The translations under genes and the position numbers were made by a program. A stretch of 13,232 nucleotides of DNA from a virus: the UHGV virus genome UHGV-0297100; one strand, 5' to 3'. Below are positions 1,522 to 13,231 of the stretch, piece after piece. The notes below the pieces were generated by a model, which saw nothing but the letters and a program-made list of their open reading frames with translations, searched no databases and had not been told where the DNA came from. Positions within the stretch are counted from its first letter, which is position 1, and each line of letters starts with the position of its first letter.

Positions 1522-2021
1522 TGCTGACCCCACAAACAGATTTCACGCTCAATCTCACGACGAGTCATGAGACCTTTCCATTGCTTACCGCCAGCATATG
1601 TCCAGCGACGTAGCTGATCACATGCGCCTTTGATATCGCCCTGGTTTATTTTGCGAAGAAGCGTCGATGTTCTGAAATTGCCAGCACCCACGTTGTAAAC
1701 GAATGAGTAAAGAGCGCCGCGCATTGTTTCCGGTATATCGACTTTGATGTACGGGTTAATTTGTCTGGCGACCGTGGCAAGGTCTTTATTCAGGAGAGCT
1801 TTGCATTCTGCTTCGGTATACGTTTTACCGAGCATGATGTCTTTTCCGGTGTGTCCGTGACATACAGTCCATACACCAACAATATCTTTGTATGGTATGT
1901 AGCTGACACCTTCCAGACCATCGTTACCACTTGGTCCAGTGATTAACACAGATGCTATAGCAATAGCCCCGCCACTTATCGCCGCTATTACGCTATTTCG
2001 TAGTGCCGGTGACATTGCCAT
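1518..2021 (-). CDS. R: Phage endolysin (lysozyme), phage-21-type with an N-terminal signal-anchor-release (SAR) segment
   Basis: N-terminal weakly hydrophobic Gly/Ala-rich segment [17 protein letters not shown] followed by a lysozyme-like domain ([25 protein letters not shown]...). It sits between the holin and Rz and overlaps the holin 3' end. The exact start (M1 or M3) is unresolved. Confidence 0.9.
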
Positions 2022-2196
2022 TCAATCTGTCCTCGCGCTCTTTGCGCTTGTAGTACCAGTTGATGCCAAATGTGCCGACAGTACAAAGAATACCAATGAT
2101 GACAGCCCAGTCATTCAGGGAGAGAATGCCACCCATCGCAGTCAGTCCTCCGAAGCTGTAACTGAACCATTCTCTGATTTTGTCCATACGGTACAT
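1993..2196 (-). CDS. S: Class II holin (two transmembrane segments) with a dual-start motif
   Basis: 67 aa with two hydrophobic segments and a charged C-terminus ([10 protein letters not shown]), immediately upstream of and overlapping the endolysin. The N-terminus MYRMDK has two in-frame Met codons separated by a basic residue, like lambda S107/S105. Confidence 0.8.
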
Positions 2197-2687
2197 GCTC
2201 TACCCCTTCATTGAGGGGATTTGCTCTATTTAATTAGGAATAAGGTCGATTACTGATAGAACAAATCCAGGCTACTGTGTTTAGTAATCAGATTTGTTCG
2301 TGACCGATATGCACGGGCAAAACGGCAGGAGGTTGTTAGCGCAACCTCTTGCTACCCGCTTTCACGAAGGTCATGTGTAGAAGGCCGCAGCGTAACTATC
2401 ACCGATGAATTCATGATAGCCAGTGGCTACGGCTCAGTTTGGATTGTGGCGACCGGTGCTGATCTCCGGTTTGCTGCAACTGCCTACAGCGGGCTACGTG
2501 GCCACACCGAATCCAGCGAAAGATTCTTGCCCTTACACATCAGCCTGTGCATTCACCACAACGATAAGAGCACTGCGCGGCACCTTTCACCAATTCCGCG
2601 AGGTCTGCGGGTTCAATGCTCTTACCTGTTGTGCAAATAAAAAAGCCACCGTTGCAACTTAAGAGTCACTAACGGCAGCTTACATCT

Positions 2688-3200
2688 TTAAACGGTATGA
2701 TATTTCATTCTGGCGGCCTCAAAAGCCGCAGCGGCAAGTTCGGCAGTATCATGGTATCCAAGGTTAATACACTTTCCAGACGCATTAATTCTTGCTCTCC
2801 ATTTCCCGTACTTAGCATCCCAAGACACGCCACGGTATCCAGATTTATTATTCTTCTGAATTTTCCTGTTCTGCATATTTTCGGAATGAGTGACAAGACG
2901 AAGATTTGATATCCGGTTATCTGTTCTTACCCTGTTGATGTGATCAATAAAACCATCGGGCATGGTGCCATAAACAATCAACCATGCCAGTCTGTGAGCA
3001 GGGTATGCTTTACCATTAATCATAATCATTAAATACCCATCAGAATTTATTGATGAGCATTTCTTGAAAGCAAAACGAGAGTTCCATGTCAAAGTGGTCC
3101 TCTCTCTTCCCCGCCTCCATCTCCAGTGAAAGTCGCCTGATGATGGATTGTAATCAACAACAGAAAGCACCATTTCTGGCGTTAATTTTATTTCTTTCAT
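2688..3200 (-). CDS. HNH endonuclease with a C-terminal AP2-type DNA-binding domain (homing-endonuclease-like moron)
   Basis: HNH motif region HRLAWLIVYGTMPDGFIDHINRVRTDNRISNLRLVTHSENMQN, followed by an AP2-like segment SGYRGVSWDAKYGKWRARINASGKCINLGYHDTAELAAAAFEAA. RBS AAGG upstream of ATGAAAGAAATA. Appears AT-richer than its neighbours by eye. Confidence 0.8.
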   Translation of the reverse strand: MKEIKLTPEMVLSVVDYNPSSGDFHWRWRRGRERTTLTWNSRFAFKKCSSINSDGYLMIMINGKAYPAHRLAWLIVYGTMPDGFIDHINRVRTDNRISNLRLVTHSENMQNRKIQKNNKSGYRGVSWDAKYGKWRARINASGKCINLGYHDTAELAAAAFEAARMKYHTV

Positions 3201-3320
3201 CGCTTTACCTTAGGGATAGAGCCTGTTCGCGTAGATATGACAGCCAAGAGCGGAGCGATGTTTCCACCACCATATCTCAGGCCCATATCACTAAGACTCT
3301 TGTTTTGATTGCACGCGAAT

Positions 3321-3347
3321 GCAAAAAAGCCCACAGGAGGTGGGCTT
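3321..3347 (-). terminator. Rho-independent terminator, candidate tR' downstream of the late promoter
   Basis: Minus strand reads GCCCAC-CTCCT-GTGGGC (6 bp GC-rich stem) followed by TTTTTTGC. It lies about 50-70 nt downstream of the candidate pR' and upstream of the HNH gene. Confidence 0.6.
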
Positions 3348-3387
3348 GTGATGGTTGCTGAATGCAAAAGCAGCAGCATATGTGAAT

Positions 3388-3417
3388 ATTATGGCTAAAT
3401 GGCTAATTGCATGTCAA
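3388..3417 (-). promoter_or_regulatory. Candidate late promoter pR' overlapping the 3' end of Q
   Basis: Minus strand TTGACA (3417..3412), an 18-nt spacer, then CATAAT (3393..3388). The Q stop codon TAG (3397..3395) lies inside the spacer. The position just downstream of Q matches lambdoid pR'/qut architecture. Confidence 0.5.
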
Positions 3418-3913
3418 GGCTTTTAACAGCAACATGCTTAACTTTCTCAACACGTTTACGCATTTTGAAAGCATTTTGCATTGGTTGGTACAAAACAAAT
3501 AACGACGCTTTCAGGATGTCGTCAATTTCGTTTCTACAGGTTGCCAGTGAAGGTTTTCTCCATCCCTCGCCACCACGTCCACACATCTTGCGTGGCTTTG
3601 CAGTCGCGTGATAGTAGGATGCAATTGCTCGCTTAGATGAACCATGAGCGTAGTAGCTGAGGAGGATGCCAAAGGCTTTCTTGTCAATGTACATGACGGA
3701 ATCGACGACCTGAGAAATCAACATTCCATCATCATCATTACACATTGGCCTTGTCATAACTCTTCCCGGCTCTACGCTCTCCATGAACTTCGCTATTACG
3801 CTGCTCATGCGCTTTTCCAGACGACCTGAATAAACCCATGCGCCCCACAGCTCAAGCCAGCCATTCAGCCAATCGTGCTGTTCTTTGGTGAGGTTTAGCT
3901 CTCTTATGCTCAT
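3395..3913 (-). CDS. Q: Late-gene antiterminator Q (Phage_antitermQ family)
   Basis: Motifs WLELWGAWVYSG...TRPMCNDDDGMLISQVV match the conserved ERWGAW...SRP.C.DDD pattern of QuuD-type Q proteins. It directly follows ninH, and its start overlaps the ninH stop (ATGA). Confidence 0.8.
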   Translation of the reverse strand: MSIRELNLTKEQHDWLNGWLELWGAWVYSGRLEKRMSSVIAKFMESVEPGRVMTRPMCNDDDGMLISQVVDSVMYIDKKAFGILLSYYAHGSSKRAIASYYHATAKPRKMCGRGGEGWRKPSLATCRNEIDDILKASLFVLYQPMQNAFKMRKRVEKVKHVAVKSLDMQLAI

Positions 3914-8048: not shown

Positions 8049-8891
8049 TCACTCCTGCGCCCATGAAGGCATTTCAGTTTGTCCGTAATCTTTGGTGGCA
8101 AAGTTTTCCTGCATAGCTCGATGCTGCGGCCTCGGTTGAGATTTCCCCTTTGGAGTCTTGGGCTCAAAAATCCCCTGCCAACCACTGGCGATGCTCTGGT
8201 TTATAATTTCTTCAGGTGTATATCCCTTCTCCAGACTTCTGCTTAGAACGTTGATAGCCTGAGTGACACTTTGCTTAGACTTGATCGACTTACCTATCTC
8301 CTTGCGATAGGTAACCCACGACAACCATGTTTCTGCTGATAACCAATCAGGCAACTCTGTTTCTAGCGGGTCGAACTTCTGAGAAACTTTTTTGGGGGAT
8401 ATAGGGGGTTTATTAATATTTTCTTTTGTCTTTAAAGAATGTCTTTTGTGTGTCTCTAACTTCGAGACATTGAGTGTCTCTAATTTGGAGACATTTTTTG
8501 TCTCTAACTTCGAGACAAAGTTGCTAACTTGGAGACACTTGCTGAATTGCCACGCAGATACCTCACTGTTTACACCGATTTGATTTCCATCCATAAACAG
8601 GCAATTCATTGAAATCAGTTCTTTTTTAGCCTTGTTAACATTCTGCCTTGACAGTCCTGTTAACTGAGCAATTTGCTCATCGGCTATTCGATCTGTTTTC
8701 TTATTGAATCCATATGTTTTCCGGACGTAGGCCAGCATAACTTTCAACTGGCGAGCGGTTAAATCGGCACTTGCGATAGCTTCCAGCAGCTCGTTAGCGA
8801 ATCTGGTGTAACCATCATCGATATCAGCCACTCTTCGCTCCTGTTCAACAGGTTCACTCTTCGGCAGGTAAAATACTTCAGCAAGGCTCAT
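8049..8891 (-). CDS. O: Replication initiator protein O (lambda O-like)
   Basis: Gene upstream of the DnaC-like loader. The coding sequence contains the origin iterons, reflected in the protein repeats VSKLETKNVSKLETLNVSKLET. Start taken at MSLAEVFYLPK..., with GGAGG upstream. Confidence 0.85.
   Translation of the reverse strand: MSLAEVFYLPKSEPVEQERRVADIDDGYTRFANELLEAIASADLTARQLKVMLAYVRKTYGFNKKTDRIADEQIAQLTGLSRQNVNKAKKELISMNCLFMDGNQIGVNSEVSAWQFSKCLQVSNFVSKLETKNVSKLETLNVSKLETHKRHSLKTKENINKPPISPKKVSQKFDPLETELPDWLSAETWLSWVTYRKEIGKSIKSKQSVTQAINVLSRSLEKGYTPEEIINQSIASGWQGIFEPKTPKGKSQPRPQHRAMQENFATKDYGQTEMPSWAQE
8451..8537. repeat. Replication origin iterons inside O
   Basis: Three near-identical 19-bp palindromic units TGTCTCTAA(C/T)TT(C/G)GAGACA at 8451-8469, 8475-8493 and 8499-8517, with 24-bp periodicity, plus a degenerate fourth at about 8522-8537. 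An AT-rich stretch at about 8395-8450 flanks them. Confidence 0.85.
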
Positions 8892-9522
8892 TTCCAACCT
8901 CCGCATCAAAGCATTGGGCTTCAAGAGACTTAACCATCACCACACTGCCATCTGTATTAATAACTATCGATGAGTTATATTTGCTTATCAGTTGCTTCGC
9001 GTAATCAATTCCGGCGCGAATAAGGAAATTTTTCACCGCAGGAAGATGACCAACTACACTACCCAGACCTTGCTCTATAAGCTCCTCATTAAGATCAAGC
9101 TCATTTTCATGGCGAAAAGAAATGAATGAGTCGTAAATTGCGTATTCTGCCGTCTCGCCATTTCTTTCAGGGCCAACCAGCGCCCTTATTTCATTTAGAG
9201 ATTCAGAAAGATCATTATCTTCAAGCTTGAAAAACTCTCGATTATCACTAAGCCTCTCTTTTGCAAAGGCTTTATGAATGAGTTTTTCATCTGATGCGGG
9301 ATTATTTGAATGAAAGGCTGCTATCACCTTAAATGGCTTAGGAACGCCAGTAGAGGCTGAAATTTCTTTAGCCCTAACTTCTGGTGAATGCTTAGTCATC
9401 CCAATCTTATAAATTCCTGGCATGCACTCATTCGAAAGCACATAAACAAAGCCATTTGATTTAAAATCATCTGGCACCTTCATGCTCTTCAGAACCTGGA
9501 ATTTGTCATTTTCGTATGTCAT
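8878..9522 (-). CDS. T5orf172 / GIY-YIG-like domain protein (moron between cII and O)
   Basis: N-terminal motif GFVYVLSNECMPGIYKIGMTKHSPEVRAKEI fits the T5orf172 / GIY-YIG-like pattern. GGGAG lies six nt upstream of the ATG. AT-rich by eye. Domain call is from motif memory. Confidence 0.55.
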   Translation of the reverse strand: MTYENDKFQVLKSMKVPDDFKSNGFVYVLSNECMPGIYKIGMTKHSPEVRAKEISASTGVPKPFKVIAAFHSNNPASDEKLIHKAFAKERLSDNREFFKLEDNDLSESLNEIRALVGPERNGETAEYAIYDSFISFRHENELDLNEELIEQGLGSVVGHLPAVKNFLIRAGIDYAKQLISKYNSSIVINTDGSVVMVKSLEAQCFDAEVGNEPC

Positions 9523-10232: not shown

Positions 10233-10303
10233 CGTACTTTCAGTACGCATTATGATTGAACTGAAAGTTTTTGCAAGTGCTTTAGTATCGTACTCATGGT
10301 TCA
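10233..10303. promoter_or_regulatory. OR operator region with divergent PR/PRM promoters
   Basis: Perfect palindrome CGTACTTTCAGTACG (10233-10247), plus related sites TGAACT-GAA-AGTTTT (10257-10271) and CGTACT-CAT-GGTTCA (10289-10303, overlapping the cI ATG). Minus-strand PR candidate TTGCAA (10271-10276), about 16-17 nt spacer, CATAAT/ATAATG. Confidence 0.7.
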
Positions 10304-11003
10304 GAATGAAAAAGTGCGCAAAGAATTCGCCCAGCGGCTAGCGCAAGCCTGTAAAGAAGCTGGTCTTGATGAACATGGTAGGGGAATGGCTATAGCCCGT
10401 GCCCTTTCTCTTTCGTCCAAAGGCGTTAGCAAATGGTTTAATGCTGAGTCTTTACCGCGTCAGGAAAAAATGAATGCGCTTGCGAAATTTCTAAACGTTG
10501 ATGTTGTTTGGCTTCAGCACGGCACTTCGTTAAATGGAGCGAATGATGAAGATACTCTTTCATTTGTTGGCAAATTAAAAAAAGGGTTAGTGCGCGTGGT
10601 TGGTGAGGCAATTCTTGGTGTTGATGGTGCCATCGAGATGACCGAAGAGCGCGATGGGTGGCTCAAGATTTATAGCGATGATCCAGATGCCTTTGGTCTT
10701 CGTGTAAAAGGAGACAGCATGTGGCCTAGAATAAAATCAGGAGAATATGTACTCATTGAGCCTAACACCAAAGTATTCCCGGGTGATGAGGTGTTTGTCA
10801 GAACCGTTGAAGGACACAACATGATCAAAGTTCTTGGCTATGACAGAGACGGAGAATACCAGTTTACAAGCATCAACCAGGACCATAGGCCAATAACGTT
10901 GCCTTATCATCAAGTAGCAAAGGTGGAGTATGTGGCTGGTATTCTGAAGCAATCTCGCCATCTGGATGACATCGAGGCAAGGGAGTGGCTGAAAAGTTCG
11001 TGA
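10296..11003 (+). CDS. cI: CI repressor (N-terminal HTH, C-terminal LexA/S24-like autocleavage domain)
   Basis: 235 aa with an N-terminal HTH region and a C-terminal S24 peptidase-like domain (GDSMWP serine, MIKVL lysine). Divergent from cro. Confidence 0.9.
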   Translation: MVQNEKVRKEFAQRLAQACKEAGLDEHGRGMAIARALSLSSKGVSKWFNAESLPRQEKMNALAKFLNVDVVWLQHGTSLNGANDEDTLSFVGKLKKGLVRVVGEAILGVDGAIEMTEERDGWLKIYSDDPDAFGLRVKGDSMWPRIKSGEYVLIEPNTKVFPGDEVFVRTVEGHNMIKVLGYDRDGEYQFTSINQDHRPITLPYHQVAKVEYVAGILKQSRHLDDIEAREWLKSS

Positions 11004-11080: not shown

Positions 11081-11518
11081 GTGGAACAGGAAAAGATTTC
11101 TTTTGTCTATCCGACGCTAATGCGTGAAGGCATGTTCGCAGGTGGTATTTATGTACCTGACCTGTCAATGGTCATTGATAGAAAAGAGCAAAAAACACCA
11201 ATCGCCGTTACGGCTGGATTCTTGATGAAATCAGTCGAAATGTACGTTATTGAAGTCGAAATAAATGCGATGGATGCCCCATCTCCAACTGAGCATAGCC
11301 TTTCTGGTCACATTCAAACAAAGTACATTGAGAGAATAAAATACGGCGGAAAGTTAGCTGTCTATACCATGCTTTCCGAGAATGCTGACCTAAACAATGA
11401 TGGTTTTTACAGGGTTGTTGTAAGGTTCTATAAGACGTCTAATGGAGAGAAAGTCGGCAATTGCTTAGATGAAAAAGATTGTTTTTTCTATGTTTCGCAT
11501 AAGGACTCAGGGGAATGA
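11081..11518 (+). CDS. Hypothetical soluble protein, first gene of a two-gene module downstream of cI
   Basis: 145 aa ORF starting at GTG with AAGGA six nt upstream. No recognisable domain and no predicted TM segment. Its stop overlaps the next ATG (GAATGAGC). AT-rich by eye. Confidence 0.6.
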   Translation: MEQEKISFVYPTLMREGMFAGGIYVPDLSMVIDRKEQKTPIAVTAGFLMKSVEMYVIEVEINAMDAPSPTEHSLSGHIQTKYIERIKYGGKLAVYTMLSENADLNNDGFYRVVVRFYKTSNGEKVGNCLDEKDCFFYVSHKDSGE

Positions 11519-11817
11519 GCAAATCGCATTTGTATGTTGTTCCTACAAACAATGAACCCTTGGTTGAAAATCACCCACAAGAAGATGATAATCATAAATA
11601 TGGAAATGGCGGTGGGGGTGATGACATGCTTGAAAGGGTCAAAAAGCTAGAAGAACAAATGGCATCACTTGTTACAGATGTTGCTGTAATTAAGTCTAAC
11701 TATGCCACCAAAGAAGATTTGCACAAAGAGATTGGATCGCAGACAAAGTGGATTGCAGCAACCATAATCGGCACGACCGGTTTAGCTTTGGCTGTCGCTA
11801 AGTATCTTTTTGCCTGA
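11515..11817 (+). CDS. Hypothetical small membrane protein (coiled coil plus C-terminal transmembrane helix), second gene of the module
   Basis: 100 aa with an acidic Gly-rich N-terminus (GNGGGGDD), a coiled-coil-like LERVKKLEEQMASLVTDVAVIK, and a C-terminal hydrophobic helix WIAATIIGTTGLALAVAKYLFA. Translationally coupled to the upstream gene. Confidence 0.6.
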   Translation: MSKSHLYVVPTNNEPLVENHPQEDDNHKYGNGGGGDDMLERVKKLEEQMASLVTDVAVIKSNYATKEDLHKEIGSQTKWIAATIIGTTGLALAVAKYLFA

Positions 11818-12721: not shown

Positions 12722-13231
12722 TTACTTGTTTTTGCCATGCTTATCCTGAGCGATAAGTTCATCCATAAGACTGTCTTTCTTCCCAGCAAACCTAATGTAG
12801 CACTCATTTCTATAGCGTTCCGGGATAACAAAACGGTCGATTTCAGGATATCCAGTAGCAGAAGGTATCCGAATAAGAAGCCCTTTTTCGAGCAATGAGA
12901 TTGCTTCAGGGCTTCCCTTTTCTGTCTTTAGCTGGTTATTCGCGGCTACAGCGAATGCCAAATACGCTCTTTCTCCAAGAGTTAACGAATCAAACAAATC
13001 TTGCACATATTTTTCTTCTTTAGATTTGCGCTTCTGAGCAGCGGATACCTCAATTCTTTCAGTCACAGCGTGATAAGCGGAATTAACAACACCGTTAAGC
13101 ACATAGCTAACGCAGAACAACAGGATGTAATACATCCAATAATGAGGAAGGATTTCTGGATTATGCAGGTTTATCCATTCTTTTACGCTTACCGGCATAA
13201 CAATAATCAATATGATCAGGATGATTAGCAT
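12722..13231 (-). CDS. Membrane protein convergent with N, possibly SieB-like superinfection exclusion protein (may extend beyond the window)
   Basis: 169 aa ORF reaching the window edge. Two N-terminal hydrophobic segments (LIILIILIIVMPV, YWMYYILLFCVSYVLNGVV) followed by a soluble domain. Opposite strand to N, as for lambda/P22 sieB. The family assignment is tentative. Confidence 0.35.
   Translation of the reverse strand: MLIILIILIIVMPVSVKEWINLHNPEILPHYWMYYILLFCVSYVLNGVVNSAYHAVTERIEVSAAQKRKSKEEKYVQDLFDSLTLGERAYLAFAVAANNQLKTEKGSPEAISLLEKGLLIRIPSATGYPEIDRFVIPERYRNECYIRFAGKKDSLMDELIAQDKHGKNK

Follow-up and report, generated by a model that had tools for sequence, protein, structure and literature searches.

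The 13,232-nt window analysed here, taken from virus genome UHGV-0297100, is part of a lambdoid prophage in which the early-right and late genes lie on the minus strand. Its late control region harbours an HNH-AP2 gene, encoded on the same strand as the late antiterminator gene Q. The initial annotation had placed this gene between the late terminator tR' and the lysis cassette, and this placement is borne out: the tR' stem (3347..3327) lies upstream and the holin gene (2196..1993) downstream. From Q to the holin gene, the region is built up as follows.

3395 to 3913, minus strand: late antiterminator Q of the Q21 family, 172 aa (Pfam PF06530, E 1.3e-25)
3388 to 3417, minus strand: promoter pR', TTGACA-18-CATAAT, overlapping the end of Q (promoter scan, 11/12 matches)
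3323 to 3387, minus strand: leader a, the initial transcribed region followed by tR' (terminator scan)
3201 to 3322, minus strand: non-coding cassette leader of 122 nt, from the T-run of tR' to the ATG (conservation, fold)
2688 to 3200, minus strand: HNH_3 + AP2 endonuclease gene, ATG start, 170 aa (Pfam, I-HmuI alignment, model)
2639 to 2683, minus strand: leader b, the 3' end of the cassette with a terminator hairpin (alignment of Q-to-holin intervals)
2197 to 2638, minus strand: structured non-coding spacer of about 440 nt, outside the cassette (fold, alignments)
1993 to 2196, minus strand: holin, first gene of the lysis cassette (Pfam Phage_holin_2_3, E 4e-21)

The product consists of two domains, as had been read from the sequence: an I-HmuI-like nuclease part (approximately residues 1-113) and an AP2 DNA-binding part (approximately residues 120-167). 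In Pfam searches both families score above their cut-offs, HNH_3 (PF13392) at residues 66-110 with 66.1 bits against 24.8 (E 2e-18) and coverage of the full 46-position profile, and AP2 (PF00847) at residues 120-167 with 35.1 bits against 33.3 (E 2e-8). The protein also matches phrog_99, 'HNH endonuclease' (E 1e-73), and a search of NCBIfam assigned it to no family. Phage HK629 and the E2348/69 prophage have genes with 99% identity that already bear the annotation 'HNH endonuclease' (GenBank/RefSeq). The catalytic residues expected of an HNH nuclease are present: D86-H87, N99 and N108 align with D74-H75, N87 and N96 of I-HmuI in an alignment with the PDB sequence. Across an alignment of 32 homologues, with identities as low as 40%, D86, H87 and N99 do not vary, while H69 and N108 are conserved in at least 90%. 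Furthermore, the sequence contains the boxes HRLAW, DH, DNR, NLR and EN, which are known from the work of Lee et al. on the 'HNN-AP2' endonucleases encoded by Xanthomonas phages (PMC2248197). It has only two cysteines and no CxxC pairs.

An AlphaFold2 model built on the 32-homologue alignment has a mean pLDDT of 90. Its best Foldseek match in the PDB is I-HmuI (1U3E; probability 1.00, 107 columns, E 2e-3), with a TM score of only 0.36 because just one of the two domains aligns; the HNH_3 domain is predicted to adopt the beta-beta-alpha-metal fold. The AP2 part of the model, made up of strands 125-128, 133-140 and 143-150 and a helix at 153-167, superimposes on AtERF1 (1GCC) with an rmsd of 1.7 A over 52 columns and also resembles TEM1 (7ET4). 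A phmmer search of the same part against PDB sequences recovers Arabidopsis WRI1 (7WQ5, E 2e-6).

The inserted unit is larger than the gene. The initial annotation had taken the gene as the unit and the open reading frame (ORF) does belong to it, but what is inserted is a cassette consisting of the 122-nt leader, the ORF and a terminator hairpin. The Q-to-holin intervals of the carriers (the window, HK629 and E2348/69) were aligned with those of the HNH-less phages HK75 and Oslo. Without the gene, 6 nt (TAGAAG or TGGAGG) separate the -10 hexamer CATAAT from GTAAGCTGCCGTTAGTGACTCTTAAGTTGCAACGGTGGCTTTTTT, which comprises a leader and tR'. In carriers, 704 nt lie between CATAAT and GTAAGCTGCCGTTAGTGACTCTTAAGTTGCAACGGTGGCTTTTTT, a clean indel in comparison with the HNH-less phages. 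This leader b, which serves as pR' leader and tR' in HNH-less relatives (annotated as 'terminator Tr'' in HK75), follows directly after the HNH stop codon in the window, where it is predicted to form a long hairpin with a stem at 2679..2645 and a T-run at 2644..2639. A hairpin directly 3' of the stop codon is kept in four other HNH lineages. The gene itself is intergenic and free-standing, with non-coding flanks, outside any intron or intein and between two terminators.

Leader a consists of the first 65 nt past the -10 hexamer (3387..3323), with the sequence ATTCACATATGCTGCTGCTTTTGCATTCAGC...AAGCCCACCTCCTGTGGGCTTTTTT, and an intrinsic terminator scan of the minus strand finds the tR' stem there, followed by a T-run. 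It occurs without the HNH-AP2 gene in the loci L066 and L077 and in Hafnia phage yong1, and is therefore a pR' leader with terminator in its own right, an alternative to leader b. In L066, terminator a is joined straight to ATTTGCACAACAGG, which in the window comes after the second terminator; in this type of HNH-less allele, tR' a is fused to ATTTGCACAAC. Relative to the L066 allele the window has gained 3322..2639, that is, the 122-nt leader, the ORF and leader b, with GGCTTTTTT as the junction repeat. A similar comparison can be made for an E. coli lineage carrying a homologue of 62% identity (P0017), whose cassette ends in its own terminator, AAGCCTCGCCACTGTGCGGGGCTTTTT. The sequence after that cassette, GCATTTAGCGTCATCC..., is near-identical over about 60 nt to the sequence after tR' in an HNH-less Hafnia phage, and the two junctions share GGGCTTTTT(T)GCATT. 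From these comparisons it follows that both lineages have the insertion at the end of the tR' T-tract. Alleles with leader b only may be either ancestral or products of gene loss, the junction of 6-7 nt being too short to tell.

The second terminator, the 122-nt leader and the structured spacer of about 440 nt had not figured in the initial annotation, and they bear on its description of the gene as a moron. This description fits in part: the gene has its own terminator (2679..2639), but no sigma-70 consensus promoter was found on the minus strand between tR' and the ATG (3322..3201), where a non-consensus promoter within the leader is possible. With a terminator upstream and no such promoter behind it, the proposed late, Q-dependent placement holds. 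The sole strong promoter in the scan of the HNH-AP2 region is pR'. Homologous sites are annotated in other phages, pR' in HK75 and the rho-independent terminator tR' in HK629. The HK629 record also gives a 'putative pR'' just 5' of the gene, which would provide it with its own promoter; the scan finds no consensus site there, and this annotation was rejected in favour of the TTGACA-18-CATAAT site common to HK75.

PF06530 is the Q21/933W antiterminator family according to Yin, Kaelber and Ebright, who place the Q-binding element of the Q21-type system within -40 to -1 (10.1101/651190). Both leaders have a -10-like hexamer 7 nt past the promoter -10, TATGCT (3380..3375) in leader a and TAAGCT in leader b, and these are candidate sigma-dependent pause elements for a Q21-type Q, judging from their sequence and spacing. 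On the minus strand the hexamers, each followed by GC, read TATGCTGC in leader a (3375-3380) and TAAGCTGC in leader b (2676-2681), and in the window the leader b copy sits about 700 nt from the promoter.

The cassette leader is more conserved than the genes on either side of it. Across lineages it is 91-97.5% identical, where Q is 69-81% and the HNH ORF 68-72% identical, and just past the ATG the identity drops from 90-100% to 37-53% (83% in the closest lineage, L134). The leader is missing from HNH-less alleles and therefore belongs to the cassette. An ORF of 60 aa (3379..3197) runs through it and ends with ATGA at the HNH start, but it is considered non-coding, since indels between lineages (net +4, +1 and others) break the frame; the 199-aa gene calls of P0004 and P0010 simply read through this ORF. 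The leader folds better than shuffled sequence (z = -3.1). Its consensus fold is a long hairpin in which UCUUAG is paired with CUAAGG, a likely Shine-Dalgarno sequence 7 nt 5' of the ATG, and 98.4% of cells in the consensus are paired, as against 33-41% when the partners are slid. Covariation is weak, with 40 of 500 shuffles doing as well for the only seven variants available. The predicted fold makes the hairpin a probable translational damper over the ribosome-binding site, and the conserved leader together with the 3' hairpin suggests regulated expression. Two other leads were considered and set aside. Prophage small RNAs of the Pas/StxS type occur in other neighbourhoods, PasD going with the lambda-type PF03589 Q and PasA and PasC with RusA/TerB/DUF1627, and the paper describing them reports none that matches the leader (10.64898/2026.05.13.724894). 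A short match to Klebsiella phage Kp4856-1 precedes an unrelated ORF and is uninformative.

The interval between Q and the lysis genes is a recurrent site for cargo in lambdoid phages, holding stx genes and tRNAs in Stx phages and tRNA-Asn and tRNA-Thr in P22-like phages. The HNH-AP2 gene lies in the same late, Q-dependent interval downstream of tR'; it differs from these cargoes in encoding a nuclease without obvious benefit to the host and in its position right at the terminator, not further downstream. That the interval accepts cargo, as had been supposed, is also evident from the relatives of the window, which hold tRNA-Asn and tRNA-Thr or a second HNH gene. In the window, the spacer downstream of the cassette (2197..2638) contains no ORF with a family match, and in the Q-to-holin interval ARAGORN found no tRNA and no Rfam family passed its gathering threshold, the one match, to P9, being at chance level (E 0.5). 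The fold of 2197-2690 is far better than that of shuffles (z = -5.4). The 3' half of the spacer is almost invariant among HK629, E2348/69, Oslo and HK75, while the 5' half is replaced by tRNA-Asn and tRNA-Thr in some relatives (the tRNA alleles being those of Oslo and E2348/69) and in others looks like tRNA remnants, for example the GGTTCGATTCC T-arm in HK75. L066 and L077 have, about 100 nt further downstream, a different HNH_3 gene whose 169-aa product shares 42% identity with that of the window. This gene lies approximately 300-810 nt past the pR' -10 hexamer, at a site equivalent to about 2555-2560 of the window, and is inserted in the 3' arm of a long spacer hairpin (AAGAGCATTG...CAGTGCTCTT), with its stop codon within the conserved flank GTGGTGAATGCGCAGGCTGA.

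Presence of the gene is optional, with a fixed junction. It occurs in 40 of 5426 complete E. coli genomes, 39 times at full length, and all copies are at least 98.4% identical; strains 317, 04-00955 and ECE170 match the window exactly at the DNA level. About 418 records hold the same Q allele, with a cut-off of 95% identity, so that the gene is present in about one in ten of the prophages with this Q. Of the 80 top-ranking Q loci from IMG/VR, 19 have the cassette, 58 are HNH-less (51 by the exact junction motif and seven with a single-base variant) and three have leader a without this gene. Taking together the loci compared that contain the pR' -10 motif, 54 have the cassette, with an unvarying 704 nt between the -10 hexamer and leader b, and 59 are HNH-less with a precise junction; the empty-site alleles that the initial annotation had proposed to seek by aligning relatives do therefore exist. 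The linkage to Q is equally strict: each of the 39 close relatives from IMG/VR is bordered immediately by this Q on the upstream side and by leader b on the downstream side, and none is located elsewhere. In six distant lineages the gene lies 110-226 nt behind a PF06530 Q and ahead of the lysis genes. Their products show the following identities to the window protein.

P0004: 76%
P0010: 71%
P0013 (Pantoea): 69%
P0011 (Serratia): 67%
P0014: 65%
P0017 (E. coli): 62%

In several relatives, extra HNH_3 genes occur within the nin region or between NinH and Q; some of these also encode an AP2 domain.

L128 and L130: 1776-2297
L132: 959-1549
L137: 544-1098
L138: 42-518
L139: 651-1178

L128 and L130 have HNH-AP2 genes on both sides of Q. 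These nin-region genes and the paralogue of L066 and L077 indicate that the region has been invaded repeatedly. Remnants occur as well: in PhiR12 phages only the leader and 93 nt from the start of the ORF are left, and in NCTC9112 only its first 68 nt. Intact, paralogous and decayed copies side by side have likewise been described for the HNN-AP2 genes of other phages (PMC2248197). Two chimeric products, one with a 99%-identical AP2 half joined to a Phage_CII domain (P0023) and one with an HNH half joined to PF11650 (P0020), probably mark large deletions in decaying prophages. In the IMG/VR locus L011, Q is interrupted by an insertion of about 1.95 kb (approximately 577-2532), and the HNH cassette downstream is intact.

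The cassette is more uniform than its surroundings. Among carriers the mean pairwise distance is 0.005 over the 704-nt cassette, as compared with 0.01-0.06 for the adjacent Q in most pairs, a diversity about 2 to 10 times lower, and the correlation between cassette distance and Q distance is 0.11. At least six classes of upstream flank and at least six of downstream flank are represented. The ORF is open in all 29 distinct carrier haplotypes, which encode five protein variants and have seven synonymous and five non-synonymous variable sites. Within Q and leader b, carriers and HNH-less loci show no fixed difference. The pattern fits a young, uniform element spreading among diverged backgrounds.

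On the basis of these observations, the gene probably encodes a free-standing homing-type endonuclease of the HNH(HNN)-AP2 class, situated in a compact cassette at the tR' T-tract and expressed late. In a lysogen, transcripts from pR' would halt at tR' and the nuclease would be silent. After induction, RNA polymerase modified by Q would pass tR', the cassette and the cassette terminator and reach the lysis genes, and the nuclease would be made late, its translation probably being damped by the hairpin over the ribosome-binding site. The AP2 domain would then provide recognition of a DNA sequence and the I-HmuI-like His-Me finger would nick or cut the DNA. If a related phage or co-resident prophage without the cassette were cut, the break might be repaired from a copy that bears the cassette, which may spread in this way through the shared Q and leader flanks.

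This interpretation has several precedents. I-TevI and mobE of T4-type phages have a hairpin over the ribosome-binding site and are restrained in their expression. Late, restrained expression, which is predicted here from the position behind tR' and the hairpin over the ribosome-binding site, would be a feature in common with T4-type I-TevI, mobE and seg genes, some of which differ in their nuclease family (GIY-YIG). With I-HmuI of Bacillus phage SPO1 (1U3E), the protein shares the N-terminal stretch of about 110 residues and the active site at a sequence identity of about 20%. I-HmuI is encoded in a group I intron and, in the account of Shen et al. from 2004, is said to bind DNA through a C-terminal helix-turn-helix/IENR-type part, not AP2; the window protein is, in contrast, free-standing and has a C-terminal AP2 domain. 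The HNH-AP2 architecture has been described as a homing-endonuclease class (PMC2248197; PMC10448857), recognised earlier by Magnani et al., as cited in these two papers. The two-domain architecture and the boxes are those of the HNN/HNH-AP2 endonucleases of Xp10/Xop411/OP1, Felix O1, T1, T5, RB-type phages and the ICP1 'IPA-HNH', and tblastn finds homologues of 41-45% identity in phages bearing such genes. Like the gene studied here, these are free-standing and intergenic, variable in their presence and accompanied by degenerate remnants (PMC2248197; PMC10448857). They are, however, scattered over the genomes of virulent phages, whereas the present lineage belongs to temperate lambdoid phages, occupies one fixed site behind Q and has a conserved 5' leader and a 3' terminator hairpin. 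In the literature, no paper was found on this lineage, on its fixed place behind a Q21-type Q or on the cassette structure.

A number of points weigh against homing. In the literature, no cleavage, homing or biochemical work on this protein or its close relatives was found, and the AP2 score is marginal, barely exceeding the Pfam cut-off. A co-conversion tract was not seen in the flanks, which is a weak test, as lambdoid recombination could erase such tracts. The low diversity of the cassette could equally arise by a selective sweep combined with ordinary lambdoid recombination. All 54 cassette loci and the six diverged lineages are directly behind a Q21-type Q, and such long-term synteny at the same site, with an intact ORF, could mean a function that is useful to the phage. 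Moreover, a purely selfish model does not explain the extreme conservation of the leader, unpaired stretches included. A rival idea, rather unlikely in our estimation, is that the gene has been domesticated in the late operon: the nuclease or AP2 binding alone would be useful to the phage, for instance by attacking the DNA of the host or of competitors late in infection, or by adjusting late transcription through binding to the late leader, and it would be kept without homing. Such a role would account for the occurrence in the same place behind a PF06530 Q in six lineages diverged to 62% identity (from E. coli, Pantoea, Serratia and metagenomic phages), for an ORF that is intact in 29 of 29 haplotypes and for the apparent regulation by leader and hairpin, and AP2-domain proteins of phages can indeed be pure DNA-binding regulators (10.64898/2026.02.23.707548). 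It is less easily reconciled with the presence of the gene in only about 10% of prophages with this Q allele, with functional phages that lack it, such as HK75 and P22-like phages, with its combination with unrelated lysis and packaging modules and with the truncated remnants, and the conserved catalytic residues argue against a mere DNA binder.

It could also be imagined that the cassette is a passive passenger, inserted once long ago and moved ever since by ordinary homologous recombination, with a nuclease that either lacks activity or plays no part in its spread. All carriers share one junction, with 704 nt separating the -10 hexamer from leader b, the cassette is at no other site among close relatives, the flanks lack a co-conversion signal and lambdoid phages recombine heavily at module borders. 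Nevertheless, we consider this improbable: the ORF and its active site are kept across lineages diverged to 62% identity, beyond what is expected of a neutral passenger, the cassette is roughly 2 to 10 times less diverse than the adjoining Q in many backgrounds, and HNH_3 genes have repeatedly and independently invaded the same region. As an HNH-superfamily protein in a lambdoid late operon, the product also recalls gp74 of HK97, an HNH protein that, in the 2014 study of Kala et al., reportedly assists terminase in cos cleavage. A packaging nuclease of this kind is so improbable that we regard it as ruled out by context, family and the varied terminases of the carriers. The gene is upstream of the lysis cassette, away from the terminase and portal genes, and optional among otherwise similar phages. 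Its carriers differ in their packaging (HK629 is a Lambdavirus, L129 and L132 have Sf6_terminase and L131 has Terminase_2), and HNH_3 with AP2, devoid of CxxC pairs, is a Pfam family other than the zinc-binding PF01844.

Returning to the homing-type endonuclease, a more far-reaching version can be put forward only tentatively: the cassette might be a mobile unit specialised for the tR' T-tract in Q21-type late operons, its 3' hairpin acting as a second terminator and its leader as an element that functions as RNA or DNA, such as a riboregulator limiting translation of the nuclease, or a cis site for mobility or for autoregulation by AP2. If so, the late genes would still be gated after insertion, and the conservation of the leader beyond that of its protein would be explained. 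It is also possible that HNH-less phages such as HK75 and the P22-like ones owe their leader b form of pR'-tR' to the cassette, whose 3' end would have stayed behind when the gene was lost.

This cassette does not alter the accepted view of lambdoid phages. It lies, however, inside the best-understood antitermination switch in biology, where it could show how a selfish insertion at a terminator can be accommodated while late control stays unbroken, and it could reveal the role of a non-coding leader whose conservation exceeds that of the genes on both sides. HK629, with the cassette, and HK75, without it, form a clean natural pair of phages for testing homing in a family with thousands of homologues; the practical value is modest.

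The remaining part of the window follows the lambdoid gene order, with the genes from Cro-like to the nin region on the minus strand.

10296 to 11003, plus strand: cI-like repressor
minus strand, in this order: Cro-like, CII, T5orf172 ORF, O, DnaC-like loader, nin region
4457 to 4095, minus strand: RusA, nin region
4098 to 3910, minus strand: NinH, nin region
2021 to 1518, minus strand: lysozyme, followed by Rz/Rz1

The ORF between cII and O (8878-9522, minus strand, 214 aa) matches T5orf172/MUG113, a GIY-YIG-like family (E about 1e-15). In Vibrio phage ICP1, this family is counted among the free-standing homing endonucleases (PMC10448857), and the prophage may carry a second selfish nuclease gene at 8878-9522. 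Near the repressor, a gene for SieB superinfection exclusion (Pfam E 4e-25) adjoins ORFs of 145 aa, without a Pfam match, and 100 aa, in the segments 12722-13231 (minus strand) and 11081-11817 (plus strand). At the other edge of the window, Rfam recognises an ALIL pseudoknot, a frameshift signal of the IS3 family, at 39-138 on the plus strand (75.9 bits), which suggests an IS3-type element just past Rz that may interrupt the prophage.

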